DNA from: Candidatus Methanophagales archaeon
Lineage (GTDB): Archaea; Halobacteriota; Syntropharchaeia; Alkanophagales; Methanospirareceae
Length of the DNA: 64,000 nt
Direction of reading: 5' to 3'
NCBI GenBank assembly: GCA_017883965.1
Contig: JAFNKG010000001.1
Location: 14,893 to 78,892, forward strand
The notes beneath the pieces were generated by a model, which was given only the letters and a program-made list of their open reading frames with translations, did no database searches and was not told the origin of the DNA. The position numbers and the translations under genes were made by a program. Positions 211-51,338 of the stretch are shown here, piece after piece. The stretch's first letter is position 1. Each line of letters opens with the position of its first letter.

Positions 211-1215
211 TTATAAAACATTTACTCTCCTTAGCCCTTCATCATCCGCATACCGCTCTATCAACGGTCTTATCTCTTCGCTATACCACCCTTTCTTAAT
301 AAACTCTGGATAGATGGGCAACCTTTCCCTTAATTCAAAAGGTGCAACAATTCTTCTCAGTTCTTCCTCTCCTGGCCAGGGCGATTCGGGATTTATGTAA
401 TCCTGCGTTTTCTTTGATATTCCACCCAGGTCTGATGCGCCAAGTTCTATTAATGCCTTAGGCGAAGTCAAATTTGGTGGAACCTGTATCGCTATTTCTT
501 CTGGCAATATCTCTCTCGCCGCAAGCACAACTTCCTTCATCTCCTCGAAAACTGGCGGTTTTTTGTTCCACATCGGCGTTAACGGCTTAGGGAAGAAAGG
601 CTGGATAATAATTTCTTGTATGTGCCTGTATTTCTCGTGTAGCGATTTTATAGCAGCCAAAGAGCGGATGCGGTCTTCTTTCTCTTCTCCGATGCCCACT
701 AATATGCCAGTGGTAAAAGGAATTTTGAGTTTACCCGCCTCTTCTATCAGTTCCAATCGTTCCTTTGGGTCTTTCCCGGGTGATTTCTTATGCGCTTCGA
801 GCTCTGCGGTGGTTTCGAGCATCAAGCCCATTGATGCATTTACATCTCGTAACTCCTTTAACTCCTCCTTACTCAGCACACCCAGATTGCAGTGAGGAAG
901 TAATCCGTGCTTAATCGCCATTTTGCATAGCTCTTTCGTGTATTCAACGAGAGAGGAACATCCCAAACCAGTTTCGATAAGCCGGTTTTTGAAGAAAGGA
1001 GAAAGATTTGCGAGTTCTGGCTTCTCGCCAGTCGTGAAAAGAGCTTCTGTTGCAGTTCCCTTATTATTTACAAGATTTAAAAATTCTTTCACGCCTACTA
1101 CGTATGCATCCTCGTGGCTGCGAGCTCTAAACCCGCAGTAGTCGCAGGCATTCCTGCATACGTTCGTCACGGGGATGAAAATGTTTTTGGAGAAGGTGAT
1201 GTATTTATTTTTCAT
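211..1215 (-). CDS. cofG: 7,8-didemethyl-8-hydroxy-5-deazariboflavin (FO) synthase subunit CofG, radical SAM
   Basis: 334 aa. N-terminus ITFSKNIFIPVTNVCRNACDYCGF carries the CxxxCxxC radical-SAM motif in a CofG-typical context. Confidence 0.85.
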   Translation of the reverse strand: MKNKYITFSKNIFIPVTNVCRNACDYCGFRARSHEDAYVVGVKEFLNLVNNKGTATEALFTTGEKPELANLSPFFKNRLIETGLGCSSLVEYTKELCKMAIKHGLLPHCNLGVLSKEELKELRDVNASMGLMLETTAELEAHKKSPGKDPKERLELIEEAGKLKIPFTTGILVGIGEEKEDRIRSLAAIKSLHEKYRHIQEIIIQPFFPKPLTPMWNKKPPVFEEMKEVVLAAREILPEEIAIQVPPNLTSPKALIELGASDLGGISKKTQDYINPESPWPGEEELRRIVAPFELRERLPIYPEFIKKGWYSEEIRPLIERYADDEGLRRVNVL

Positions 1216-1348
1216 TTCCTTATTCTTGATATTAATTCAAGGAAAGATAATCCGCACTTTTGGGGTATGATATGTCCTTATAAAATGATAAGATAAAAAT
1301 CAACAAAGTATAAATAAAATCACAAATCAACCTAAAGTAGGCGAGAAG

Positions 1349-2206
1349 ATGAAAATAATAGGTGGAATGTCTGCACAGGTTTTGGCTGCGAGAATCGCGA
1401 AAGAGCTGGGCTGTAAAGCTTCATTATGTGAGTTCAAAAAGTTCCCCGATGGCGAATTATATACGAGAGTGGTGGACGATATAAAAGACGAAGAAGTAAC
1501 CATCGTGCAGAGCATTATAGCAGATTCCGATCTGGTATGCTTGCTGCAGTTGATAGATGCGGTGGAAGAAGCGAGTGAAACAAAAGTTGTCATCCCTTAT
1601 CTGGGGTATGCGAGACAGGATAAGAGGTTTAAACCCGGCGAGCCGATAAGTGCAAGGGCAATTGCAAGGAGCATAAGCTTTGCTGGCATCGTTGATAAGA
1701 TATACGTGGTTAACGTGCATAATAAAGCCGTAGTGGAGTATTTTGATGTAGATACAAAGGAGCTGGATGCTTCTTCTTTAATCGGTGATTGCATAGCGAA
1801 AAAGGAAATAACGCATCCGGTGATAATAGGACCTGACGAAGGTGCTAAGGAGTTAGCGAAAGCAGTTGCTGCTCCTCATGGCTTCGATTATGACGTGCTG
1901 GAGAAGAGGAGGATAAGCGGCGATGAAGTGCGTATAAACCCGAAAGAGGTAAGCGTGGAAGGAAAGAACATTGTCATCGTGGACGATATTATTTCCACTG
2001 GCGGCACAATAGCAGAAGCGGCTTCTATGCTAAAAGCACGGGGTGTGAACGAAATTTATGTCGCATGCATACATGGACTTTTTGTGCAAAATGCAGCCCT
2101 GCGGATACTCAATGCTGGCGTCGAAGAGATAATCGCAACAGATACGATAGAATCTGTTTTTAGTGCGATAAGTGCAGCGAAGATGGTTGCAGAAGAGCTG
2201 CGCTGA
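1349..2206 (+). CDS. prs: ribose-phosphate pyrophosphokinase
   Basis: 285 aa. Shows a Prs-type PRPP-binding region (IVIVDDIISTGGT) and typical overall layout. Confidence 0.85.
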   Translation: MKIIGGMSAQVLAARIAKELGCKASLCEFKKFPDGELYTRVVDDIKDEEVTIVQSIIADSDLVCLLQLIDAVEEASETKVVIPYLGYARQDKRFKPGEPISARAIARSISFAGIVDKIYVVNVHNKAVVEYFDVDTKELDASSLIGDCIAKKEITHPVIIGPDEGAKELAKAVAAPHGFDYDVLEKRRISGDEVRINPKEVSVEGKNIVIVDDIISTGGTIAEAASMLKARGVNEIYVACIHGLFVQNAALRILNAGVEEIIATDTIESVFSAISAAKMVAEELR

Positions 2207-2216
2207 AAAGGTGAAA

Positions 2217-3692
2217 TTATCCCTCGCCGAAGAATCGCCTCATCGCTGGATACATCTCCATCATCTGCTCTGATGCCACGTCCTCATAAAGCCGGTAAGC
2301 AATGCTAACTGCCAGAAGTAAACCAGTGCCTGATGCACCTCCAAGTGTGCCCAGCATATCAGAAAATACGCACAAAACACCCAAAATAGCACCCCCCATT
2401 AGCGCTATTTTCGGTATATATCCCTCCATCATACTCTCTATCGTTGCCGGGCTCCTGCGATGCCCCGGTATTTGTAGCCCTGAGCGATGTATCTGCGATG
2501 CTACATCCTTCGCTCCCATTCCGGTCGTATTTATCCAGAATAGAGCGAATACCGCCCCACCTATGACCATAAAAGAAAGGTCAACAGCCAATCTCGTGGC
2601 AACTTGCCAACCCGCATAAGGTATTGTCATAAGCCCCGGGAACCAATCCCAGGGACCATACATGGGGTCGAGATAATACACCAAGCCTGATGCCGCAGTT
2701 CCGTATTCATCATACGTTCCGAATATAGTAATTCCACGGGAATGAAGCATTCGTCCAAAGCCCTGTATGCTCGCCTGCATCGCTCTCACGAGAATCATCG
2801 GAAGCACACTTGCGTATAACAGCTTAATTGGGAACCTGCCACGAGCACCTCTTGCCATCGAATGCGCTAACGGTATCTCTAAACGAGTGCTTTCGAGGTA
2901 AACAACGAGGAAAAAAACTCCGATAGTTGTTATAAGTGCGATTATGTGATGCTGGAAAAGAAAAACCATTCCTCCTTCCAATATCTCGTATGCGGGTACT
3001 TGCAACGGCGAACCCGGCAATAGTAACTGAATCCATCTGGGTATTACACCCACTGCCAATCCGAACTCGTCTGGCATCCAACCTATAAGCCCGGTAATTA
3101 ATTGTTTAGAGACACCCGCGATGATGAACAACGAAACGCCTGACCCTATTCCCCATTTTGATACCACCTCATCCATGAAGTATATAAGCATCCCGCCGAT
3201 GAAGATTTGAATGAAGAGCAGGAACGAGATGACCTGCAAAGATACACCGAGTTTATCTGCTATTCCCTGGTCAGGCACATAAAAGCCCACAACGTATGTC
3301 AAACTGATAAAAACCGAAAAGACCAAAACGAGCAGTTTCTGTAGGTTCTGATAAAACGCCTGGTCGCGGGGGTCGCTCAAGTTCAATTTTATTATTCCCG
3401 CGCCAACCAGAAGCTGTAAGACAATGGAAGCATCAACAATTGGCATGATTCCGAGAGCAGTTAATGTATATGTTTCACCCGCAAAAATTGCACGCCATCT
3501 ACCGAAAATATCTATTGATTGCTCAACATCCATCCCAAAGAGATAAACATTGCCAAGTGCGAAAAAGAGAACGAGTATGGCAATAGTCCAGCCTAACTTC
3601 GCTTTAAAATGAACGTGCCACCCAGGGCGTTCAACCATGGGGAATTTACTTAAAATCGGTGTTAATGCATCTCTTAATCTTATCTCGTTCAT
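2217..3692 (-). CDS. secY: preprotein translocase subunit SecY
   Basis: 491 aa polytopic membrane protein. Contains the SecY signature GIMPIVDASIVLQLL and sits directly downstream of rpl15, as in archaeal ribosomal operons. Confidence 0.9.
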   Translation of the reverse strand: MNEIRLRDALTPILSKFPMVERPGWHVHFKAKLGWTIAILVLFFALGNVYLFGMDVEQSIDIFGRWRAIFAGETYTLTALGIMPIVDASIVLQLLVGAGIIKLNLSDPRDQAFYQNLQKLLVLVFSVFISLTYVVGFYVPDQGIADKLGVSLQVISFLLFIQIFIGGMLIYFMDEVVSKWGIGSGVSLFIIAGVSKQLITGLIGWMPDEFGLAVGVIPRWIQLLLPGSPLQVPAYEILEGGMVFLFQHHIIALITTIGVFFLVVYLESTRLEIPLAHSMARGARGRFPIKLLYASVLPMILVRAMQASIQGFGRMLHSRGITIFGTYDEYGTAASGLVYYLDPMYGPWDWFPGLMTIPYAGWQVATRLAVDLSFMVIGGAVFALFWINTTGMGAKDVASQIHRSGLQIPGHRRSPATIESMMEGYIPKIALMGGAILGVLCVFSDMLGTLGGASGTGLLLAVSIAYRLYEDVASEQMMEMYPAMRRFFGEG

Positions 3693-4118
3693 CTATGCAA
3701 TACTCACCACACCACCTGCACTTTCTATTTTCTCCCTCGCTGTTTTTGATACTTTGTTCGCTTTGAGCATCAGCGTCTTCGTTACTTTTCCCTTGCCCAA
3801 TATTTTTTGTATGCCGAGCTCGGTTGCATCGAGAAAAATGCCATCCGCTTTCTCTTCCGCTTTTCCTTCTTCTATCAGCTCTTTCAGCATCTCCTCCAGT
3901 TCACCTACATTCACCGCCGTATCGGCACTGCGATTTTGGAGAGGTAATTGTGATTTGTTTTTTCCCTTTCTTATACCCTTTTTCAAAGACCGGACGATGT
4001 GATGTGTGTATGCGCCTGCGTTACCGACACCACCTCTGCTTCCTTTTCCTCTTCTCTTCTTACTTGAGCCGCCACCGCAGGTTCTTGTCCCTCTTATCCT
4101 TTTTATCCTCTTTTTCAT
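3693..4118 (-). CDS. rpl15: 50S ribosomal protein L15 (uL15)
   Basis: 141 aa. Basic and Gly-rich N-terminus (RTCGGGSSKKRRGKGSRGG). Abuts secY. Confidence 0.85.
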   Translation of the reverse strand: MKKRIKRIRGTRTCGGGSSKKRRGKGSRGGVGNAGAYTHHIVRSLKKGIRKGKNKSQLPLQNRSADTAVNVGELEEMLKELIEEGKAEEKADGIFLDATELGIQKILGKGKVTKTLMLKANKVSKTAREKIESAGGVVSIA

Positions 4119-4220
4119 AAATGTATGCAGACCCCCATCTTATCTTACCAGCAGTTTATAAACTATGTTTATATATACTTTACTTTTTATACCACAACAA
4201 TAGAATAGTATAGTTTACTT

Positions 4221-4230
4221 CATATTTAAA
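4221..4230 (+). promoter_or_regulatory. candidate archaeal TATA box upstream of tbp
   Basis: The AT-rich sequence catatttaaa lies about 20-25 nt upstream of a GGAGG ribosome-binding site and the tbp ATG at 4248. Confidence 0.3.
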
Positions 4231-4247
4231 ATGGAGGATTGAAAGGG

Positions 4248-4799
4248 ATGACAGAAATAGACATAAAAATAGAAAATGTAGTAGCGAATGCTAGGATTGC
4301 GAATAACCTGGACCTGGAATACATCGAATCGAGGTTAGAGGAAGCGATGTTTACGAAAAAGAAGTTCCCTGGTCTGGTGTACAGGACAAGAGAGCCAAGG
4401 TCCGCTTTTCTTATCTTTCGTTCCGGTAAAGTGGTGTGCACAGGGTCGAAGACTGAAAAGGGTGTGCGAGAGGTGATAGACAAGCTTGCTGCCGACCTCA
4501 GAGGCATAGGTATAGAAGTGGAGGAGCATCCAGACTTTAAAGTGCAAAATATCGTTGCTTCTGCCAATCTTGGAAGAGAACTCAACCTCGGGGCTATCGT
4601 GGTGGGGTTAGAGCTCGAAGGCATGGAGTACGAGCCAGAGGTTTTTCCGGGGTTGGTGTATAGAATAGACGAACCAAGGAGTGCTATACTGATATTCAGC
4701 TCTGGACGGTTGGTCATAACCGGGGGAAAGACACTGGAGGATTGTGAAAAGTCCGTGCAGGTATTGCTGGACAAATTAAGGAACTTAGAGTTGATTTAG
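4248..4799 (+). CDS. tbp: TATA-box binding protein
   Basis: Two TBP repeats are visible (FPGLVYRTREPRSAFLIFRSGKVVCTGSK and FPGLVYRIDEPRSAILIFSSGRLVITGGK). An ATG at 4248 follows a GGAGG motif. The ORF track start at 4239 is TTG. Confidence 0.9.
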   Translation: MTEIDIKIENVVANARIANNLDLEYIESRLEEAMFTKKKFPGLVYRTREPRSAFLIFRSGKVVCTGSKTEKGVREVIDKLAADLRGIGIEVEEHPDFKVQNIVASANLGRELNLGAIVVGLELEGMEYEPEVFPGLVYRIDEPRSAILIFSSGRLVITGGKTLEDCEKSVQVLLDKLRNLELI

Positions 4800-4808
4800 A
4801 AGTTTAAA

Positions 4809-5225
4809 ATGGAGCCGAAAATAGTGGCGTTTTGCTGTAATTGGTGCTCTTACGCAGGCGCAGACCTTGCGGGTGTATCTCGCTATCAATATCCCGCGGC
4901 TGTGCGAATATTAAGGGTAATGTGTTCCGGAAGAGTAGAACCCGTTTTCATATTCGATGCGTTTAAAAATGGCGCTGACGGCGTCATCGTCACTGGTTGC
5001 CACCCGGGTGAATGCCATTACGTCTCTGGTAACCTGAATGCGGAGAAGAGGGTGGAAAATACGAGGAAAGCGTTGGAGTATTTAGGACTTGGAGCAGAAC
5101 GGCTTCGTCTGAAATGGATATCCGCATCAGAGGGGTTGAAGTTTGCAGAGGTGATGCGAGAGTTTACAGAGGAAATAAAGGCGTTGGGACCTTCCCCGAT
5201 AAAGTCTCGTATGAGTGTGAAATAA
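4809..5225 (+). CDS. mvhD: methyl-viologen-reducing hydrogenase delta subunit MvhD
   Basis: 138 aa. N-terminus IVAFCCNWCSYAGADLAGVSRYQYP is typical of MvhD. It lies directly upstream of hdrA. Confidence 0.85.
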   Translation: MEPKIVAFCCNWCSYAGADLAGVSRYQYPAAVRILRVMCSGRVEPVFIFDAFKNGADGVIVTGCHPGECHYVSGNLNAEKRVENTRKALEYLGLGAERLRLKWISASEGLKFAEVMREFTEEIKALGPSPIKSRMSVK

Positions 5226-5257
5226 TAAACCTTCTTTTTACAAAGCAAAAATATAAA

Positions 5258-7246
5258 ATGGAGAAAAAGGAGAAGGTGAACGAAGGTGAAGAAAGGATAG
5301 GGGTGTTTGTATGCCGATGCGGCGTGAACATAGGTGGAGTTGTAGATTGTGATGAGGTAGCGAGATATGCAGCGACGCTACCCGGAGTGGTTTGCGTATC
5401 CGTGAACAAGTTCACGTGTTCTGATTCGGGACAGGCGGACATACAGGAGCATATTCGTAAATATAATTTGAATCGAGTGGTAGTTGCGGCATGCACACCA
5501 AAGACACACGAGCCTACTTTTAGAGTATGTTGTGAGGAAGCAGGGGTGAATCAGTATCTTTTTGAGTTCGTTAACATCCGCGACCAGTGTAGCTGGATGC
5601 ATATATGGGACCATGAGGGCGCAACGAAGAAGGCGAAGGATTTAGTTCGGATGGGTGTTTATCGTGCTAAGCTGTTAGAGCCACTGGAGGAATCAGAAGT
5701 TGCAGTGGACCAGAATGCAGTGGTTATAGGCGCTGGAGTTGCGGGGATGCAAGCGGCAATGGACCTCGGGGACATGGGGTTCCATGTCTATTTAGTGGAG
5801 AAGGAGCCTTCGATTGGAGGAAGGATGGCTCGTTTTGACAAGGTATTTCCAACGAATGACTGCTCTATCTGCATCTTAGGACCGAAGATGGTGGAAGTAG
5901 CACGTAACGAGAACATCGAGATAATGTCGTATTCAGAGGTAGTGGAGGTGAAAGGGTTCGTGGGTAATTTTGAAGCCACGATAGAGCACAAGCCCAGATA
6001 TATAGATGTGGATAAATGCACGGGGTGTGCGCAGTGTGTGGAGAAATGTCCGGTAGAAGTGCCATACGACTTCAACGAAGGTTTTGGGACTCGAAGAGCG
6101 GCATACGTACCTTTTCCTCAGGCTGTTCCGCTCCGCGGGGTAATAGATCTGGAAAATTGTTTGAGAAGCGAAGGTAAGGAGTGCAAAGCCTGTATAAAAG
6201 CATGTGAGCGCGATGCGATTGATTTCTCGCAGGAGAAAAAATATAGTAAGGTGAAGGCGGGTGTGATAATAGTAGCGCCGGGGTTCGTAACGTATGACCC
6301 TGAGCCAGGAAACGATTATGGATATGGGATGGATGACAACGTAATAACGACGATGGAATTTGAGCGGCTTTTGAATGCCGCTGGTCCAACAGAAGGGCAT
6401 GTTATAAGACCATCAGATTGTAAGGAGCCCATGCGGCTGGGGTTCATCAATTGTGTTGGTTCTCGTGACGTTAAAACGAACGTTCATTGCTCTGGTGGTG
6501 TCTGCTGTATGTTTAACATGAAGAATGCGATTCTATTGAAGGAGAAGCGACCGGAGATTTCGTGCTATCTATTTTATATGGATATAAGAGCACCGTTCAG
6601 AGGTTATGAGGAGTTTTACAACCGAGCAAGGGAGCTTGGCATAAGATTCGTCCGGGGAAGACCTTCGGAGGTAATAGAGAAGGAGAACGGGAATTTGGTG
6701 ATAAGAGCAGAGGACACATTGAAAGGCGTAGTAAGGAATATAGAAGTGGATTTAGTGGTTCTTGGCACGGGTATTGTGCCGCATTCGGATATAGAAAAAT
6801 TATCGAAGATGTTGAAGATACCACGCGCTGCGGATGGGCTGCTTATGGAAGCACATCCTAAATTGGGGCCTGTGGATACGGTATTAGGGGGCGTATTCGT
6901 TGCCGGTGGTGCATCAGGTCCGAAGGACATACCGCTTTCTGTTGCGCAGGGCAGTGGTGCGGCAGCAAGAGCCGCGAGATTGCTCGTTACTGGAAAAGCG
7001 AAAATAGAAGGAATAACCGCAGCTTCGGATACGGAACGATGCATAGGATGTTCATTATGCGTGGATGTTTGCCCTTATGCTGCATTGACATTGGATGAGA
7101 AAGAGAACAGGGTGATGGTTGTTGAGGCGATCTGCAAAGGTTGTGGCACCTGTGCGGCATCATGTCCCGTGGGTGCGATGGAGCAGAGGCATTTTAAAAC
7201 CGAGCAGGTAGAAGCGCAAGTGAAGAACTTGTTTGCGCTTACGTAA
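5258..7246 (+). CDS. hdrA: heterodisulfide reductase subunit A (FAD and Fe-S flavoprotein)
   Basis: N-terminal Cys cluster (VFVCRCGVNIGG), FAD motif VIGAGVAGMQAA, inserted and C-terminal 2x[4Fe-4S] motifs. Start chosen at the ATG at 5258, after the mvhD stop. Confidence 0.9.
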   Translation: MEKKEKVNEGEERIGVFVCRCGVNIGGVVDCDEVARYAATLPGVVCVSVNKFTCSDSGQADIQEHIRKYNLNRVVVAACTPKTHEPTFRVCCEEAGVNQYLFEFVNIRDQCSWMHIWDHEGATKKAKDLVRMGVYRAKLLEPLEESEVAVDQNAVVIGAGVAGMQAAMDLGDMGFHVYLVEKEPSIGGRMARFDKVFPTNDCSICILGPKMVEVARNENIEIMSYSEVVEVKGFVGNFEATIEHKPRYIDVDKCTGCAQCVEKCPVEVPYDFNEGFGTRRAAYVPFPQAVPLRGVIDLENCLRSEGKECKACIKACERDAIDFSQEKKYSKVKAGVIIVAPGFVTYDPEPGNDYGYGMDDNVITTMEFERLLNAAGPTEGHVIRPSDCKEPMRLGFINCVGSRDVKTNVHCSGGVCCMFNMKNAILLKEKRPEISCYLFYMDIRAPFRGYEEFYNRARELGIRFVRGRPSEVIEKENGNLVIRAEDTLKGVVRNIEVDLVVLGTGIVPHSDIEKLSKMLKIPRAADGLLMEAHPKLGPVDTVLGGVFVAGGASGPKDIPLSVAQGSGAAARAARLLVTGKAKIEGITAASDTERCIGCSLCVDVCPYAALTLDEKENRVMVVEAICKGCGTCAASCPVGAMEQRHFKTEQVEAQVKNLFALT

Positions 7247-41604: not shown

Positions 41605-41925
41605 TCACACCTGTATTTTTGAGACTGTAATGCAGTAGAGTTTGTCTAGTTCAGTAAAATGATCTAACAAAGCCTCGTATAGTTGTGCCTGTTTAGAATT
41701 CATGAACACATATCCACACGTCGGACAATACATTTTTTCAAACCCATGTACCGTGATTCTACCATTTAAAAAATCGACATCAAATTGCTTTATTTCCAAT
41801 TTAGACCCACATTTTGGACATTCCGTTATTTCAACTATTTCCCAATCTTCTTCCTTCCACCCTTCTTCCCAACTTTCTTCCGCCATAATATCCTCTGGTT
41901 TTATTTCTTCTGTAACCATAACCAT
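41605..41925 (-). CDS. YgiT/MqsA-type zinc-ribbon protein; candidate antitoxin partner of the upstream BrnT-like gene
   Basis: 106 aa. CPKCGS...ITVHGF...YCPTCG zinc ribbon. Starts 4 nt after the brnT-like stop. A paralogous ribbon occurs in the 59587 protein. Confidence 0.55.
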   Translation of the reverse strand: MVMVTEEIKPEDIMAEESWEEGWKEEDWEIVEITECPKCGSKLEIKQFDVDFLNGRITVHGFEKMYCPTCGYVFMNSKQAQLYEALLDHFTELDKLYCITVSKIQV

Positions 41926-41929
41926 ATTA

Positions 41930-42208
41930 CTATTTTTTCGCTTTCCTCTTATATAACTTTTTCATCTTCTCTGGTGCTTCATATGCACTCAGCATTATAA
42001 ATATATTTTCTCTTACCTTCCGCAAAACTATGAATAGGACACGCCCTTCCGCTTCTGCTAAAACTATGGTGCGCTTTTCACCATTTCGAGTTACTGCTTT
42101 TGTATATGTTTTCCCAATTAAAGCATTTTCAACTTCATACCTCCTAACACCGTGCCTTCTAATATGCTCGATTGCCTTTTCATCCCAGACTATACGGACC
42201 TTTGACAT
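41930..42208 (-). CDS. BrnT-like (DUF497) toxin
   Basis: 92 aa. IVWDEKAIEHIRRHGV and IMLSAYEAPEKMKKLY match the BrnT N- and C-terminal motifs. Paralog of the 7274 gene. Confidence 0.6.
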   Translation of the reverse strand: MSKVRIVWDEKAIEHIRRHGVRRYEVENALIGKTYTKAVTRNGEKRTIVLAEAEGRVLFIVLRKVRENIFIMLSAYEAPEKMKKLYKRKAKK

Positions 42209-42289: not shown

Positions 42290-43606
42290 CTAAGACAATG
42301 AAGAAATAACCTCACCCGCTCTACCAGCCGCGCCACTCGCCTCTGCAACCGAATCCGTAATATCTTTTGGACTCTGTGCAAACCCACAAACAAATACTCC
42401 TTCTCTTGTGGTATCTACCGGCGCATATAACGGGTCTTTCACCTTAAAGAATCCATATTCGTCCAATTCTACTCCCAATATCTTTGCCTGTTCTTCGACT
42501 CCCTTACTCGGCACCAGCGCCGTAGCCAATATAACTAAATCAACCTCCATCCTTTTAAGTTCCCCTGTCAGGGTATCTTCATACCATATCACCGGGCTCT
42601 TATCCCCATTCTCCGTTATTTTCCCGGGTCTCGCCCTTATATAATTTATCCCATATTCTTCCATACCCCGCTCTATATACTCCTGAAAGCCTCTTCCAAA
42701 AGCTCTGAGGTCAGTATAAAATACGAAAGATTCCATATCCTCCTCATGTTCCCTCGCCAGCATCCCGCTCTTCGTTGAATACATGCAGCACACGGAGGAG
42801 CAATAAGGATATCTCTTCAGGTCCCTCGAGCCCACGCAAAGGATAAAAGCTAACTTCTTCGCTGGTTTTTCATCGCTTAACCGAACGAGATGCCCGCCAG
42901 TTGGTCCTCCTGCATTTATCATCCTCTCATACTGTAATCCCGTTATCACATTTTCTATTCGCCCATATCCATACTCCTCTATCTCATAAGGTTCATAAGC
43001 ATCGAGTCCTGTTGCAACTATTATAGCACCCACATGAAGCTCAACCTCTTCCTCTTTCTGCTCGAAATCAATCGCATCCCTCTCACACGCTTCTTTACAC
43101 GCTGGTGCTTCCCCGCATTTGCCCTTCGTTATGAATATACATCTTTCCTCATCAATTACCGCAACCCTCGGAACTGCCTGTGCAAAAGGCAGGTATGCCG
43201 CTCCTCTTTTCCCAAGCCCCATATCGAATTCGTCCGGGAATCTATCTTTAAGTAAACAAATATCTTCACAAGCGCTGCACCCCGTGCATTTTTCTTCGTC
43301 CACGTATCTCGGTTTCTTACGAACTTTTACAGTAAAGTCCCCTTTCTCTCCCGATACCTCGCTCACCACGGAATACGAAAGCACGGTGATGTTCTCATGC
43401 CCGAAACATTCGAGCATCTTCGGCGCAAGTATGCATATCGAGCAGTCATTTGTCGGGAAGGTTTTATCCAACTGAGCCATTCGACCACCGATAGAAGAAT
43501 TCTTCTCTACTAAATACACCCTGAAGTCCTGCTCCGCTAAGTCAAGCGCCGCTTGAATCCCTGCTACTCCTCCTCCTATCACCAGCACACTTTTATTGCC
43601 TTCCAT
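42290..43606 (-). CDS. truncated HdrA-like FAD flavoprotein lacking the N-terminal Cys domain and the C-terminal ferredoxin
   Basis: 438 aa. VLVIGGGVAGIQAA, the conserved CSICILAPKM and an inserted CTGCSACEDIC ferredoxin. HdrA core only. Confidence 0.8.
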   Translation of the reverse strand: MEGNKSVLVIGGGVAGIQAALDLAEQDFRVYLVEKNSSIGGRMAQLDKTFPTNDCSICILAPKMLECFGHENITVLSYSVVSEVSGEKGDFTVKVRKKPRYVDEEKCTGCSACEDICLLKDRFPDEFDMGLGKRGAAYLPFAQAVPRVAVIDEERCIFITKGKCGEAPACKEACERDAIDFEQKEEEVELHVGAIIVATGLDAYEPYEIEEYGYGRIENVITGLQYERMINAGGPTGGHLVRLSDEKPAKKLAFILCVGSRDLKRYPYCSSVCCMYSTKSGMLAREHEEDMESFVFYTDLRAFGRGFQEYIERGMEEYGINYIRARPGKITENGDKSPVIWYEDTLTGELKRMEVDLVILATALVPSKGVEEQAKILGVELDEYGFFKVKDPLYAPVDTTREGVFVCGFAQSPKDITDSVAEASGAAGRAGEVISSLS

Positions 43607-43670
43607 TTCCGCTCACCCTAATTTTTTTTCGATTCCGGAATATAAAAATATTAATGAAACTTTTTTACAA

Positions 43671-44075
43671 TCAATCATTGCCATTTTCAAAACTGGTCAC
43701 TTTATTTTTCCTAAAGCAGATTTCAAAGTGTTTGAAGACATCTTCTCTTCCTAAAAGATAAGGAACATCCTCGATTAATGCAATTGCAACCTTGGCTTTA
43801 AACATTTTATCTACAATCTTCATTCTAACTTCTTTTATGATTACCGGAATTTTGCCATCTCCAATTCCTCTTATCTCTTTAATATCCTCCTCTTCCACCC
43901 TTGTCTTTAATGCCCTAATGAAAGATATTGGAAGAAGCGTAACATCCGCACCTGAATCAGTATAAGCCAGTATCCGTGTCCAACCGAGTTCTTCGGTCTC
44001 TATTTCAAATTCGACAATAGGCCTGTAAATCTCTCCAAATATCCTCGACCTCTCTTTTTGATAGGGAAAATCCAT
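43671..44075 (-). CDS. retropepsin-like aspartic protease (DSGA active site), copy 1
   Basis: 134 aa. AYTDSGADVTLLP has the clan-AA D[ST]GA motif. Paralog of 49228-49641. Confidence 0.7.
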   Translation of the reverse strand: MDFPYQKERSRIFGEIYRPIVEFEIETEELGWTRILAYTDSGADVTLLPISFIRALKTRVEEEDIKEIRGIGDGKIPVIIKEVRMKIVDKMFKAKVAIALIEDVPYLLGREDVFKHFEICFRKNKVTSFENGND

Positions 44076-44315
44076 CTAATCACCTGTAAGAATCAATGTC
44101 TCTTCCCTTTGCACAAACGCCAAGACTGGGTTATCTTTTGGAAAATCTTTTTTCGCCTTTTCTAAGACATCTATTGCATTATCTCCGCTGGCAACAATCT
44201 TCTTTCCTATCAGTGCGATGTGTTTCCCTCTAAACGCTTCTAATTCCTTTGGAAAAGAAGCAAACCATTTTAGTTCTTCATACATTCTTTCACTACCTCT
44301 TTTCTTTTTGTGCAT
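44076..44315 (-). CDS. small conserved partner protein of the aspartic protease, copy 1
   Basis: 79 aa. Homologous to 49650-49883 (YEELKWF...KIVASG...ETLILT versus YEWFL...KVVARA...ETLVLI). Abuts the protease gene. Confidence 0.45.
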   Translation of the reverse strand: MHKKKRGSERMYEELKWFASFPKELEAFRGKHIALIGKKIVASGDNAIDVLEKAKKDFPKDNPVLAFVQREETLILTGD

Positions 44316-44339
44316 ACTTTTATTATAATTTTTAGTTTT

Positions 44340-48025: not shown

Positions 48026-48397
48026 CTATTCATACTTGGATGGGCATTTAACCAGTAGTTGTGTCGCATTCAGATGATAGGGCGAAGTAAGCGTTCCTAT
48101 GGCAACTATTTTTTGCCCCTCTTTGAAGTTCTGAGGCATAGTTCCTGCGAATGCCACATCTATTGTAGCCTTGCCGTCAGTGAGTTTAAAGAGTAAAGAA
48201 CCATCCTCTCCCCAACCTGTGGACCCGCTGACAACAGTGGCTAAAATCTGAACCTCTTTGTTAATATATTCGTCATTACCAGCGACCTGCGAGACTGTTA
48301 AATAAGGATTGATATAAGATGTAAAGGCATCGTAGGCGAGAATTGTACTTATAACTATTAGAGCGACAACGATAATATGAACGGGTTTAAATTTCAT
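48026..48397 (-). CDS. ccmE: cytochrome c-type biogenesis heme chaperone CcmE (archaeal CxxxY type)
   Basis: 123 aa. N-terminal membrane anchor, OB-fold region, and C-terminal LVKCPSKYE, the archaeal C-x3-Y heme-binding motif. Confidence 0.8.
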   Translation of the reverse strand: MKFKPVHIIVVALIVISTILAYDAFTSYINPYLTVSQVAGNDEYINKEVQILATVVSGSTGWGEDGSLLFKLTDGKATIDVAFAGTMPQNFKEGQKIVAIGTLTSPYHLNATQLLVKCPSKYE

Positions 48398-48421: not shown

Positions 48422-48547
48422 TCACTCCTCCCCTACTTCTAAATCTGCTATCTTCTCTTTAAGCGAGGATAAACGTCTATTAAGCCAGATAAAAACTACC
48501 AAAAGGGACGTCCAGTAAATGATAGAAACGAGAAAGACTTCAAACAT
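48422..48547 (-). CDS. ccmD: CcmD-like small membrane protein (not in the ORF track)
   Basis: 41-aa ORF MFEVFLVSIIYWTSLLVVFIWLNRRLSSLKEKIADLEVGEE read by hand between ccmC and ccmE. One TM helix plus a charged tail. Confidence 0.4.
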   Translation of the reverse strand: MFEVFLVSIIYWTSLLVVFIWLNRRLSSLKEKIADLEVGEE

Positions 48548-48553
48548 ATTCTT

Positions 48554-49231
48554 TTAAACACCTCCTTTTTCGTAGATTAATGCGTTCACACGGCTTTCTA
48601 AAGACCAGACAGTGGATGCGGTTATCAGGAGATAAAAGAAGAATAGGGAAGCTGCTAAGAGATTAAAAAATAAAGTTGCAAGCATTGGCGAGGTTATAGA
48701 AATTCCAGACGCTTTCACTATCTGAGGATGAAGCGTTGACAATAGATTTATGGACAGATAACTCAGCGGTATGGTAGAAAAAGCGAGGATATTATACACC
48801 GCTCCTATTACCGCTCTTTTCTCAACTTCTCCGATGGAGTATTTTACGGAAATATAGCCCGCGTATGCAATCCAGAGTATGAGCGTAGTTGTTTCTCTCG
48901 GGTCCCAGTTCCAATAGCTCCCCCATGTGGCGTTTGCCCAAATCGAACCAGAAATCAATGCTATTGCACCATAAACCAACCCTAAGATAGCCGATACCTC
49001 TGCCGTTCTATCGTATGTATGCTTTCTTTTAGCTAAAAAGAGGATGCTTGCGAACAGAGAAAGTGAAAAAGCAAGATAGCAAACCCATGCTGCGGGCACA
49101 TGCGTATATAAAATCCGGTAAAGGTCTCCCATAGTTGCTTCTGAAGGAGCGGCAACATAAGCCGCATAAGAAGCGATTACGCTCACTGCTACGGCGATGC
49201 AAAGAAGAATATCTCGCTTCATTTCCTTCAT
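48554..49231 (-). CDS. ccmC: heme exporter protein CcmC
   Basis: 225 aa. WWD-motif region WGSYWNWDPRE and a conserved His-containing loop. Confidence 0.85.
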   Translation of the reverse strand: MKEMKRDILLCIAVAVSVIASYAAYVAAPSEATMGDLYRILYTHVPAAWVCYLAFSLSLFASILFLAKRKHTYDRTAEVSAILGLVYGAIALISGSIWANATWGSYWNWDPRETTTLILWIAYAGYISVKYSIGEVEKRAVIGAVYNILAFSTIPLSYLSINLLSTLHPQIVKASGISITSPMLATLFFNLLAASLFFFYLLITASTVWSLESRVNALIYEKGGV

Positions 49232-49641
49232 TTTTTACCCACCCATTCAAACAAAATAATCCCTTCACTCTGTTTGAATTCAACATTAAACCTGTCAAAA
49301 ACGTCCAATATCTCAAGCAATGGTGGAACATCCTCTATCAGTGCCCACGCGACCCTTGCATCGAATTCACATTCTCCAATGGTCATCTTCACCCACTTGA
49401 CGATAACCGGAACTTTTCCTTTGCTTATTCCAACAAGTTCAAATACTCGTGATTCGTCCATTTTAAAACCCGGCGCTTCACCGAAAATCCTCGGCAGCAA
49501 TGCTATATCCGCACCAGAATCTATGTACATCGGAACAATCGTTTTTCCTTCTTCCGTCACTAACGTAACCTCGGCAACTGGTCTATATATCACATCCGTT
49601 ATTGCCGAAAGTTCTTTTCGATATTTGAAAATAATCGTCAT
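49228..49641 (-). CDS. retropepsin-like aspartic protease (DSGA), copy 2
   Basis: 137 aa. MYIDSGADIALLP. Stop abuts the ccmC start. Confidence 0.7.
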   Translation of the reverse strand: MTIIFKYRKELSAITDVIYRPVAEVTLVTEEGKTIVPMYIDSGADIALLPRIFGEAPGFKMDESRVFELVGISKGKVPVIVKWVKMTIGECEFDARVAWALIEDVPPLLEILDVFDRFNVEFKQSEGIILFEWVGKK

Positions 49642-49649
49642 TCTACTCC

Positions 49650-49883
49650 CTATATTAATACTAATGTCTCAGAAGATGGGACTTTTGCCACAAATGGGAT
49701 TTTTCCTTTATATTTCTTCCTGATCTCGTCTAAAGCAGCTTTTAAATTCTCCTTTGCACGTGCAACAACTTTCTGCTCGATTATAATTACGTATTCATTC
49801 TCCTCGTATTCTCTCAGGTCAGCATTCAAAAACCATTCGTAATCTTTGCTCGCCATCTCTTCACCTCCTCTCCCCTTTGCCAA
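49650..49883 (-). CDS. small conserved partner protein of the aspartic protease, copy 2
   Basis: 77 aa. Paralog of 44076-44315. Confidence 0.45.
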   Translation of the reverse strand: MAKGRGGEEMASKDYEWFLNADLREYEENEYVIIIEQKVVARAKENLKAALDEIRKKYKGKIPFVAKVPSSETLVLI

Positions 49884-49975
49884 ATTTATCTATTATCATC
49901 TTCTATTAAAAAGGATTTATGCCTTACCTTATAATAAAGGTATTGAACTCGTGTATAAGACACTGATGGTGACAA

Positions 49976-50635
49976 ATGTATAATAACGCAATAGCAGTGG
50001 AAATCATAGAAGTCTCGAAGAGATATGGTTACTTACAGGCTTTGAAATCCGTGTCATTGGAAATAGAAGAAGGCGAATTTCTGGCTTTTTCAGGTCACAA
50101 CGGGGCGGGAAAGACAACGTTGCTGAAAATAATCGCCACGCATATCTCACCATCTTCGGGAACGGTGAAAATATTTGGCGATGATGCATTCAAAAACAGT
50201 GCAGAAATAAGAAGAAGGATTGGTTTGGTAACGCATGAAAGTTTTCTTTATGACGAGCTGAGCGTGAAAGAGAATTTGCTATTCTATGCGAAACTATTCT
50301 CGGTAAAAGAAGAGGAGGACTTCCTCGACACGATTGAATTTTTGGGTCTGAAACGCTGGTATAACGTTCCGGTGAAGCAACTGTCGCATGGATTAAGAAA
50401 GAGGGCGGACATCGTGAGAGCGTTAATTCATAACCCGGATTTAATCTTGCTTGATGAACCTTTTGCAGGACTGGACACGAACACCTGTGACATTCTCGTA
50501 AACTACTTCAAAAGCCGGAAAGGAAAAGGGAAGACGCTATTAATATCGTCTCATTCCTTAGAGTGGTCGAAGAAAATTTGCGATAAGCGAATCTCGCTCG
50601 ATAAGGGTAAAATAGTAGGAGAAATATCATTTTAG
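49976..50635 (+). CDS. ccmA: heme exporter ATP-binding protein CcmA (ABC ATPase)
   Basis: Walker A (GHNGAGKTT), Walker B (ILLDEPFAGLD). Followed by ccmB. Confidence 0.75.
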   Translation: MYNNAIAVEIIEVSKRYGYLQALKSVSLEIEEGEFLAFSGHNGAGKTTLLKIIATHISPSSGTVKIFGDDAFKNSAEIRRRIGLVTHESFLYDELSVKENLLFYAKLFSVKEEEDFLDTIEFLGLKRWYNVPVKQLSHGLRKRADIVRALIHNPDLILLDEPFAGLDTNTCDILVNYFKSRKGKGKTLLISSHSLEWSKKICDKRISLDKGKIVGEISF

Positions 50636-50645
50636 AGAGGCAACA

Positions 50646-51338
50646 ATGAAAAATATTTGGGATTTTCAAAGAGCTGCTCTTGGGATAGCGGAGAAAGACC
50701 TGAGGGCAGAGTTACGGCGGTCTTACGAAGTTCTATCAATTCTTACCTTCTCGGTGGGTTCCATACTGATTTGCAGTTTCGCGTGGAGTGGCGGTTCGGT
50801 AGGTTCGAAACCCGAAGTGGCATCCGCAGCACTCTGGATTATCCTGTTCTTCGCGAGTATCCTCGCATTTACCACTTCGTTTACGCGCGAAGCAGACCGG
50901 GGAACACTCGGCGGTTTGAAAACTCTACCCTGCTCACCACTGGCAATCCTTTACGGCAAAATCATTTATGGAACGGCGCTGCTTTTTTTCGTGGAATGCG
51001 TCTTAATTCCTTTTTCTATCATTTTTTTAAACCTCGAATTGAGTGGAAGATTTCCCGCTCTCTTGCTCGTATGCTTCTTAGGTGCGATGGGTCTCTCGTT
51101 TGCGGGTTCCTTTGTTTCAGGGCTCGTGATGTTCTCGGAAGGTAAAACATTACTCCTTTCTTTTCTCCTTATTCCTGTTTGTATGCCGGTGCTTATACCG
51201 TCAGTTGTGGCAACGGAGGAAATCATCGGAGGTTCCGGTATAACCGAAGTAGTGCCGGAATTGCGACTGCTAATCTCTTTTCTACTTCTGATAACCGCGG
51301 TAATGATTCTCACTTTCGAGTTTGTTCTTGAAGAATAA
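50646..51338 (+). CDS. ccmB: heme exporter membrane protein CcmB
   Basis: 230 aa with six hydrophobic helices, downstream of ccmA. The N-terminus shows only weak CcmB-like similarity. Confidence 0.65.
   Translation: MKNIWDFQRAALGIAEKDLRAELRRSYEVLSILTFSVGSILICSFAWSGGSVGSKPEVASAALWIILFFASILAFTTSFTREADRGTLGGLKTLPCSPLAILYGKIIYGTALLFFVECVLIPFSIIFLNLELSGRFPALLLVCFLGAMGLSFAGSFVSGLVMFSEGKTLLLSFLLIPVCMPVLIPSVVATEEIIGGSGITEVVPELRLLISFLLLITAVMILTFEFVLEE

Follow-up and report, generated by a model that had tools for sequence, protein, structure and literature searches.

Layout of the locus

We examined a 64,000-nucleotide (nt) stretch of an ANME-1 (anaerobic methanotrophic archaea)/Methanophagales metagenome assembly (GCA_017883965.1, contig JAFNKG010000001.1, positions 14,893 to 78,892 of the forward strand), hereafter the window, in which a small protein of the DUF5678 family and a retropepsin-fold aspartic protease are encoded side by side. 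A family-profile search found exactly 2 such modules in the window. Copy 2, the main subject here, lies directly upstream of the cytochrome c maturation gene ccmC, and copy 1 is flanked by an FrhB-like gene and an HdrA-like gene. Comparison with related genomes indicates that the pair is very probably an autonomous mobile cassette whose place beside the ccm genes is incidental. Coordinates refer to the window unless a locus is named. L-numbers denote the compared loci or contigs, with L020 being the closest sequenced relative.

49650..49856, minus strand: copy 2 DUF5678 partner gene, 68 amino acids (aa) from ATG; PF18929 match at E = 6.4e-9, above the gathering score
49228..49641, minus strand: copy 2 protease, retropepsin fold, 137 aa; YIDSGAD, with catalytic D41-S-G-A-D; LLEI in place of the family LLGR
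49234..49889, minus strand: extent of the cassette relative to L020, 656 nt; blastn homology confined to 48900-49233 and 49890-50300
44076..44285, minus strand: copy 1 DUF5678 partner gene, 69 aa from ATG, with a longer open reading frame (ORF) to 44315; PF18929 match at E = 1.8e-14
43671..44075, minus strand: copy 1 protease, retropepsin-like, 134 aa; TDSGAD; LLGRED intact; PF00077 (RVP) at 22.5 bits versus a cut-off of 20.7
48554..49222, minus strand: ccmC, PF01578 match at E = 3e-33; start MKRDIL, ATG at 49222
48422..48547, minus strand: ccmD-like ORF, 41 aa, found by tblastn between ccmC and ccmE in all ANME-1 relatives
48026..48397, minus strand: ccmE, PF03100 match at E = 4e-21
49976..50635, plus strand: ccmA, divergent
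50646..51338, plus strand: ccmB, divergent (Pfam matches for the ccmA-ccmB stretch, PF00005 and PF03379)

Transcription of the minus strand would run through the DUF5678 partner, the protease, ccmC, the ccmD-like ORF, and ccmE, with ccmA and ccmB diverging upstream. A Pfam scan of the 41-aa ccmD-like ORF returned no match. The genome-specific segment at 49234..49889 is almost identical to the span (49228-49883) marked in an earlier annotation made from the sequence alone, here called the original prediction. That annotation began the copy 2 partner at a TTG at 49883, which gives a 77-aa protein (49650..49883). The ATG at 49856 is backed by gene callers on the same contig, which report the 68-aa form, and by homologues that begin at the equivalent methionine; the sequence upstream of this ATG is GGAGGTGA. 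Partner and protease are separated by 8 nt. The protease stop had been described as abutting the ccmC start, and it does: the longest ccmC ORF has its first ATG at 49231, where the protease TGA (49230..49228) overlaps it as ATGA, while the MKRDIL start at 49222, supported by uninserted orthologues (starts compared with L024, L025, and L026), lies 5 nt past the protease stop.

Copy 2 had also been put forward as a second, paralogous pair in the same gene order and orientation, and the comparison of the 2 copies agrees. The proteases share 47% identity (E = 3e-31) and the partners 28% (E = 3e-6), and both partners exceed the PF18929 gathering cut-off of 23.2 bits, with 35.9 bits for copy 2 and 53.7 for copy 1. 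Matches to profiles of the family are far beyond chance (protease, E = 3e-54; partner, E = 7.5e-26). A degenerate DNA motif pattern matched copy 2 alone, and copy 1 came from the ORF list. The orthologue of the copy 1 partner in L004-L011 is likewise 69 aa long.

The module is not tied to ccm or cdh genes

Both copies lie inside a ccm-cdhA-frhB-hdrA cluster, and the original prediction implied that this position beside Ccm and carbon monoxide dehydrogenase (CODH)/Hdr operons is meaningful. On such a view, the module would help redox-cofactor enzymes to mature, or would control their quality, as an accessory factor for cytochrome c maturation or CODH/Hdr, and would be retained at these sites for that reason. 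The closest relative argues against this. L020 encodes proteins 90% (ccmC), 94% (cdhA), 96% (hdrA), and 91% (topA) identical to those of the window and shares the order topA-ccmB-ccmA / ccmC-D-E-cdhA-frhB-hdrA, yet it lacks both modules. The copy 1 segment (43598..44336) is missing there, so that the frhB/hdrA junction measures 8 nt in L020 versus 739 nt in the window. The ccmA/ccmC junction is 656 nt in the window (49234..49889) versus 825 nt in L020, where it is occupied by different genes: these 825 nt encode, at 5190..5983, a ribbon-helix-helix (RHH)/UPF0175 protein (100 aa) and a PIN/DUF3368 protein (164 aa) in the same orientation, ending just before ccmC. A frameshifted, decayed remnant of this UPF0175-PIN pair is present in L026 (~420..745), and in 5 other ANME-1 genomes the ccmA/ccmC spacer is 48-143 nt long and holds no cassette. 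One of these 5, GCA_023131215.1, has copy 1 and lacks copy 2.

The same positions are nevertheless occupied in some relatives. In L100, ccmA is followed by a DUF5678 gene (82-84% identity) and then the N-terminus of the protease, collinear with the window and at 82% DNA identity, and copy 1 is at the same position in L004-L011, which belong to a related ANME-1 lineage. The linkage is thus not unique to one assembly, as L100 (copy 2) and L004-L011 (copy 1) attest, but these are very close populations, and it is limited to a shallow clade. It does not extend to the closer relative L020, and we consider it incidental.

Wider sampling gave the same picture. None of 80 metagenome loci carrying the module contains ccmB, ccmC, ccmE, or cdhA, and the module is likewise absent from all 79 ccm loci that a scan for ccmC relatives recovered in other genomes. 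Homologues are found beside RtcB, GARS, RuBisCO, MCR, and iPGM genes in organisms without ccm. Two further family members do adjoin HdrA-like genes, at other junctions (L107 and L099), which could be read in favor of a redox connection, as could the conserved positions in L100 and L004-L011; the HdrA adjacency is weak evidence, ANME-type genomes being rich in Hdr, and a family-wide census found no enrichment. A function in redox-enzyme maturation is largely refuted by this distribution, and we regard it as highly improbable.

Mobility, by comparison, is shown by the clean 656-nt and 739-nt indels between close relatives, by the tandem and double copies, and by the patchy distribution. A third insertion lies nearby in the window, at 41605..42208 (minus strand), where a gene for a BrnT-like toxin (92 aa; PF04365 below cut-off) is followed by one for a zinc-ribbon protein of 106 aa, which has a DUF7479 match and weak MqsA-like ones. 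This pair fills the spacer between genes for 438-aa and 817-aa HdrA-like proteins and is absent in relatives, the corresponding spacer being ~30 nt in L005 and ~430 nt, without a match, in L020. The ccm-cdh-hdr cluster of this genome has been colonized 3 times by small two-gene cassettes. The ANME-1 cluster is in this sense a mosaic whose intergenic spacers gain and lose small cassettes, and the DUF5678 and protease genes should not be annotated as Ccm or CODH accessory factors.

Other differences between L020 and the window were seen at these junctions. L020 encodes a 222-aa multi-pass membrane protein without a Pfam match between ccmA and ccmB (3743..4411, minus strand in the locus), where the window has a gap of 10 nt. 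The gap between frhB and hdrA in L020 is 4 nt. In the window, 64 nt separate the copy 1 protease from hdrA (43607..43670, minus strand), and they contain a TATA-like sequence, TTTTTATATT, ~40 nt before the hdrA ATG, which is not found in L005. Insertion of copy 1 may have altered the transcription of hdrA.

Copy 2 sits between ccmC and its likely promoter

The inserted genes appear to share a message with ccmC, and the position of a single upstream element is informative here.

49927..49947, minus strand: TATA-containing element TTCAATACCTTTATTATAAGG, candidate native ccmC promoter, upstream of the cassette

A conserved element, TTCAATAC(C)TTTAT(T)ATAAGG, is located ~33 nt before the ccmC ATG in the uninserted locus L025. 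This spacing matches that of an archaeal TATA promoter followed by a short leader, which suggests that the element functions as a promoter. The window (49927..49947), L100, and L020 all keep it ahead of their cassettes, and this indicates that the cassettes sit between the native ccmC promoter and ccmC. No terminator-like site was found between the copy 2 genes, and a scan for sigma-70 promoters is not meaningful for an archaeon. Because the spacers are only 8 nt and 5 nt and no terminator-like site intervenes, a single transcript carrying DUF5678, protease, and ccmCDE is the simplest reading, and cotranscription with ccmC, as proposed originally, is plausible, with the TATA element retained upstream and neither room nor signal for termination. 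In our view, such cotranscription would mean that an inserted element has captured a promoter, and not that it has become a functional part of cytochrome c maturation.

Selection on the 2 copies

The original prediction held that the module is maintained and not a decaying relic, and pointed to the ratio of nonsynonymous to synonymous substitution rates (dN/dS, ω) as a check. Measured against orthologues, copy 1 is under clear purifying selection, like its housekeeping neighbors. Compared with its orthologue in L005, ω is 0.09 for the copy 1 DUF5678 gene and 0.13 for the protease, and the flanking genes give 0.12 (cdhA), 0.20 (frhB), and 0.10 (hdrA), at dS of 0.3-0.47. For copy 2, comparison with L100 relied on small samples: ω is 0.30 over the 68 codons of the partner, 0.11 over the initial 28 codons of the protease, and 0.105 for ccmA. 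The partner of copy 2 is thus also under purifying selection. The protease value covers 28 codons because L100, the sole close orthologue, is a contig of 883 nt that breaks off there.

Copy 2 differs from its family at one conspicuous site. Among the 181 aligned sequences, no other full-length member is missing Gly110 and Arg111 together; copy 2 has LLEILD in place of LLGRxD. The dimer of HIV protease depends for its stability on the corresponding Gly86-Arg87 and on the contact between Arg87 and Asp29. Since the lost residues are the Gly-Arg of the psi-psi-Gly-Arg motif, which stabilizes retropepsin dimers, the copy 2 protease is possibly attenuated. A stronger version of this would be that copy 2 is a decaying or neutralized cassette, in which the Gly-to-Glu and Arg-to-Ile changes cripple the protease and the ORFs persist mainly as the 5' part of the ccmCDE transcript. 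The higher ω of the copy 2 partner (0.30, versus 0.09 for that of copy 1) would fit, as would the alignment of the lost glycine with the psi-psi-Gly of Ddi1. Set against these points, the copy 2 ORF is intact, DSGAD is kept, 29 of the 32 conserved columns are retained, the N-terminal 28 codons have an ω of 0.11, and the ω samples are tiny. Global degeneracy was considered and rejected, because 3 deviating columns out of 32 are within the range of the family (38 of 165 members deviate as much). We therefore hold decay of copy 2 to be rather unlikely while taking it seriously, and describe its protease as intact but possibly attenuated, and not a pseudogene. The claim of maintenance stands for copy 1, and neither copy is an ordinary pseudogene; it is less secure for copy 2, where the Gly-Arg pair has been lost.

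The protease and its DUF5678 partner

The copy 2 protein is predicted to be a retropepsin-fold (clan AA) aspartic protease of the homodimer type. An AlphaFold2 model built from a 36-sequence alignment has a pLDDT (predicted local distance difference test) of 90.4. A Foldseek search of the PDB returned the Rickettsia protease APRc (5c9f) as the top match, with a TM (template modeling) score of 0.73, as well as the HIV-2 and equine infectious anemia virus (EIAV) proteases and Ddi1 RVP domains, all at probability 1.00 and with TM scores of 0.52-0.73. The sequence profile likewise reaches the Ddi1 RVP domains (E = 1e-4 to 4e-4) and the retroviral proteases of feline immunodeficiency virus (FIV) and EIAV. 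DSGAD is invariant across the 181 aligned family members, with IDSGAD in copy 2 and TDSGAD in copy 1. The second retropepsin motif, 2 hydrophobic residues and a Gly followed by Arg, is present in copy 1 and replaced by L-L-E-I in copy 2; across the family the LLGR motif has Gly in 178 and Arg in 177 of 181 members, and its Gly aligns with the psi-psi-Gly of Ddi1 (LFG). Copy 2 scores 17.6 bits against PF13650, for which the cut-off is 24.3. NCBIfam holds no family for either protein of the pair, and neither matches a PHROG.

For the copy 2 partner, the AlphaFold2 model (pLDDT 85) has an alpha-beta-beta-alpha-beta arrangement, that is, a helix, a beta-hairpin, a helix, and a strand. The DUF5678 C-terminal tail, AKVPxEETLIL, is conserved, and in the model it is poorly ordered and of low confidence. 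Foldseek with the DUF5678 model gave nothing below E = 1 in the PDB, and the sequence profile searched against solved structures gave spurious short matches only, e.g., to a glutathione peroxidase beta-strand. Database labels of "succinyl-CoA synthetase subunit alpha" and "SepF-like" (DUF552) attached to DUF5678 proteins are unsupported by the family searches. Pandoravirus proteins annotated as DUF5678 resemble the partner model in the BFVD database (TM 0.65-0.67, E ~0.1-0.4).

Descent from a virus or retroelement, with the module as a leftover Gag-Pro-like fragment, could be suspected from the fold and motifs, which are those of retroviral proteases, and from the best of these pandoravirus resemblances (TM 0.67, E = 0.1). 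A search of 2.9 million viral contigs, however, found no relative of the protease, the PHROGs were without matches, and no integrase, transposase, reverse transcriptase, or capsid gene is near the module in any locus examined. Both genes are, moreover, under purifying selection in a cellular context, and a viral relic seems very unlikely to us.

A widespread family with a constant partner and variable neighbors

An exhaustive profile search recovered 836 cluster representatives of the protease family at E <= 1e-10. Homologues at ~40-59% identity are found in ANME-1, Altiarchaeales, Aenigmarchaeota, Brockarchaeota, and candidate phyla radiation (CPR) bacteria (Gottesmanbacteria and Woesebacteria). 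In the metagenome loci, 79 of 80 assessable proteases have a DUF5678 ORF directly upstream, mostly with an overlap of 4 or 10 nt, and the single exception carries an overlapping DUF5678 ORF. Altiarchaeales, Gottesmanbacteria, Aenigmarchaeota, and an MCR-bearing archaeon show the same arrangement. At least 7 cluster representatives (P0322, P0355, P0357, P0365, P0368, P0373, and P0378) are natural single-chain fusions of 207-216 aa, in which a DUF5678-like N-terminus precedes the protease; a DUF5678 match is detectable in 4 of these 7.

The genes around the pair, by contrast with the pair itself, vary from locus to locus. Elsewhere the neighbors include RtcB with a restriction-type methylase, GARS, RuBisCO, and MCR-alpha with iPGM. 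The 124 immediate neighbors fall into 171 Pfam families, none of which recurs more than 4 times, and no recurrent partner emerges; PIN domains occur 3 times. On an Altiarchaeales contig, L012 (3908..5414), 2 DUF5678-protease modules stand in tandem, flanked by an intein-containing RtcB gene and a restriction-type N6 methyltransferase gene. On the contig L099 (2660..3044), HdrA-like and FlpD genes are followed by a DUF5678 gene that shares 79% identity with the copy 2 partner. The remaining 130 nt show no start of a protease gene, and this may be an orphan partner, or the contig may end too soon.

Toxin-antitoxin pairs turn up repeatedly in the company of the module. The UPF0175-PIN combination that occupies the ccmC-proximal site in L020 belongs to a catalogued toxin-antitoxin pair, UPF0175 (COG2886)-PIN, of a 2009 comparative-genomic survey of type II toxin-antitoxin systems (PMC2701414). 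The nearest homologues of the copy 2 protease lie directly after a HicB-HicA pair, and another close homologue is in an island with PIN, DUF433/DUF5615, and MazE/AbrB-type genes (L181). There, at 2760..3696, the MazE/AbrB-type gene precedes another retropepsin-like ORF, which is divergent in sequence (150 aa; VDTGAD, ILGR), and at 1011..2602 a separate DUF5678 gene lies upstream of an AAA_14/DUF4143 ATPase gene, which hints that the protease and DUF5678 each combine with other partners.

Interpretation

These observations lead us to lean, on balance, toward an overall reading in which the pair is an autonomous, toxin-antitoxin-like two-gene cassette that was inserted by accident next to ccmC. 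The cassette would consist of a small DUF5678 protein translationally coupled to a retropepsin-fold protease, and the family to which it belongs comprises several hundred sequence clusters scattered over archaea and CPR bacteria. It would move between genomes and sites, settling in spacers inside or ahead of host operons, and would come and go over time. Copy 2 is probably transcribed as the first 2 genes of the ccmCDE message and is expected to have no role in cytochrome c maturation.

How the 2 proteins act on each other is a more tentative matter, and the specific toxin-antitoxin mechanism is one that we propose without quite committing to it. The protease would be the effector, cleaving cellular or invader proteins when unchecked. 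DUF5678 would bind and restrain it, plausibly with its C-terminal tail (AKVPxEETLIL) placed at the dimer interface, in the substrate cleft, or close to either, and loss or turnover of DUF5678 would free the protease. Protease toxicity, inhibition by DUF5678, and the role of the tail are all inferred; for growth arrest and its neutralization by direct binding, the natural fusions of the 2 proteins give indirect support.

Several results weigh against this interpretation. No DNA-binding family or fold (RHH, helix-turn-helix [HTH], AbrB, or Phd) was detected in DUF5678 by sequence or by fold, and for this reason the autoregulation typical of type II antitoxins is unsupported. The charges of DUF5678 and the protease are not complementary in the manner of acidic antitoxins and basic toxins. 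A protease-substrate or pro-domain relationship would account for the fusions and the tight coupling just as well. In PADLOC, the protease has weak matches to components of the candidate systems PDC-M52B and PDC-M08B (E = 9e-4 and 0.02), which we take as a lead and not as evidence, and DUF5678 has no match at all. Searches of the open-access literature yielded no description of DUF5678/PF18929 in such a context or of a retropepsin-type protease paired with an antitoxin-like gene, and the 2009 type II survey lists no aspartic-protease pair (PMC2701414). What comes closest is a paper that mentions small retropepsin-domain proteins in the vicinity of type III CRISPR loci of Sulfolobales (PMC3973734).

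The main rival to a toxin-antitoxin function is a processing pair, in which DUF5678 would be a dedicated substrate or pro-domain of the protease, comparable to the arrangement in Gag-Pro polyproteins or ImmA-ImmR, and the whole a small, horizontally mobile regulatory switch. Cleavage of DUF5678 would then itself be the output, e.g., by setting a peptide free or inactivating a regulator. The order of the 2 parts in the fusions is that of the separate genes, translational coupling is the rule, the hydrophobic DUF5678 tail is modeled with low confidence, as would be expected for a segment that becomes ordered only on binding, and both copy 1 genes are under purifying selection. Processing alone leaves unexplained the presence and absence of the module between close relatives, its positional exchange with a PIN toxin-antitoxin pair, and its residence in toxin-antitoxin islands, and neither a downstream target nor a DNA-binding function is recognizable in DUF5678. 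We judge a processing pair, whether as a switch or with cleavage as its output, to be unlikely, although well short of negligible.

Returning to the toxin-antitoxin-like cassette, a further step would be to regard DUF5678 with its retropepsin-like protease as a previously unrecognized toxin-antitoxin or defense family with an aspartic-protease effector, and DUF5678 as a new protease-restraining antitoxin fold. The habit of settling just behind the promoter of an important operon, ahead of its first gene, would then secure expression and make imprecise deletion costly. We offer this only as a possibility, with some doubt. If it is true, mobile stress and defense systems would gain an effector chemistry (a retroviral-type aspartic protease) and a partner fold that are both new, in lineages on which few experiments have been done (ANME-1, DPANN archaea, and CPR bacteria). 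This would also provide a cellular prokaryotic setting for free-standing retropepsins, with a bearing on the origin of retroviral proteases. The family is in any case widespread and unstudied and deserves experimental attention.

Comparison with known systems

Conserved co-occurrence with ccmA-E, as would be expected of a component of the System I cytochrome c maturation operon, is not seen for the DUF5678-protease module. Among characterized proteases, Rickettsia conorii APRc (PDB 5C9F) has the same single-lobe retropepsin fold and D-S/T-G-A active-site loop. APRc is only 14% identical to the copy 2 protease, has no paired DUF5678, and is the soluble domain of a membrane-embedded protein. The DSGA and psi-psi-Gly motifs of Ddi1 and of the retroviral proteases (HIV-2, FIV, and EIAV) align with those of the family studied here. 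Unlike Ddi1, the protease is free-standing, at 133-140 aa, and lacks ubiquitin-like and UBA domains, and it differs from both Ddi1 and the retroviral enzymes in its extra N-terminal beta-hairpin and its prokaryotic context.

The ImmA/IrrE-ImmR pairs of mobile elements also have a small partner encoded next to a dedicated protease, and there the partner is the target of that protease, a parallel in concept that serves as a lead only. ImmA is a zinc metalloprotease and ImmR an HTH repressor; their gene order and folds are unrelated to those of the module, and no similarity to it was detected.

The closest parallel is with type II toxin-antitoxin systems such as UPF0175-PIN, HicAB, and VapBC. Like them, the module consists of 2 small genes in the same orientation whose stop and start codons typically overlap, occurs more than once in a genome, is patchily distributed across domains with variable neighborhoods, and inserts into intergenic spacers, being present or absent between close relatives, and a UPF0175-PIN pair occupies the very same ccmC-proximal site in L020. 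It differs from them in that the larger protein is an aspartic protease and not a nuclease, kinase, or other usual toxin, in that the small protein is without an RHH, HTH, AbrB, or Phd DNA-binding fold, and in that copy 2 appears to use the host ccmC promoter, in contrast to autoregulated type II operons. The module is best filed as a toxin-antitoxin-like mobile two-gene cassette with an unusual effector.

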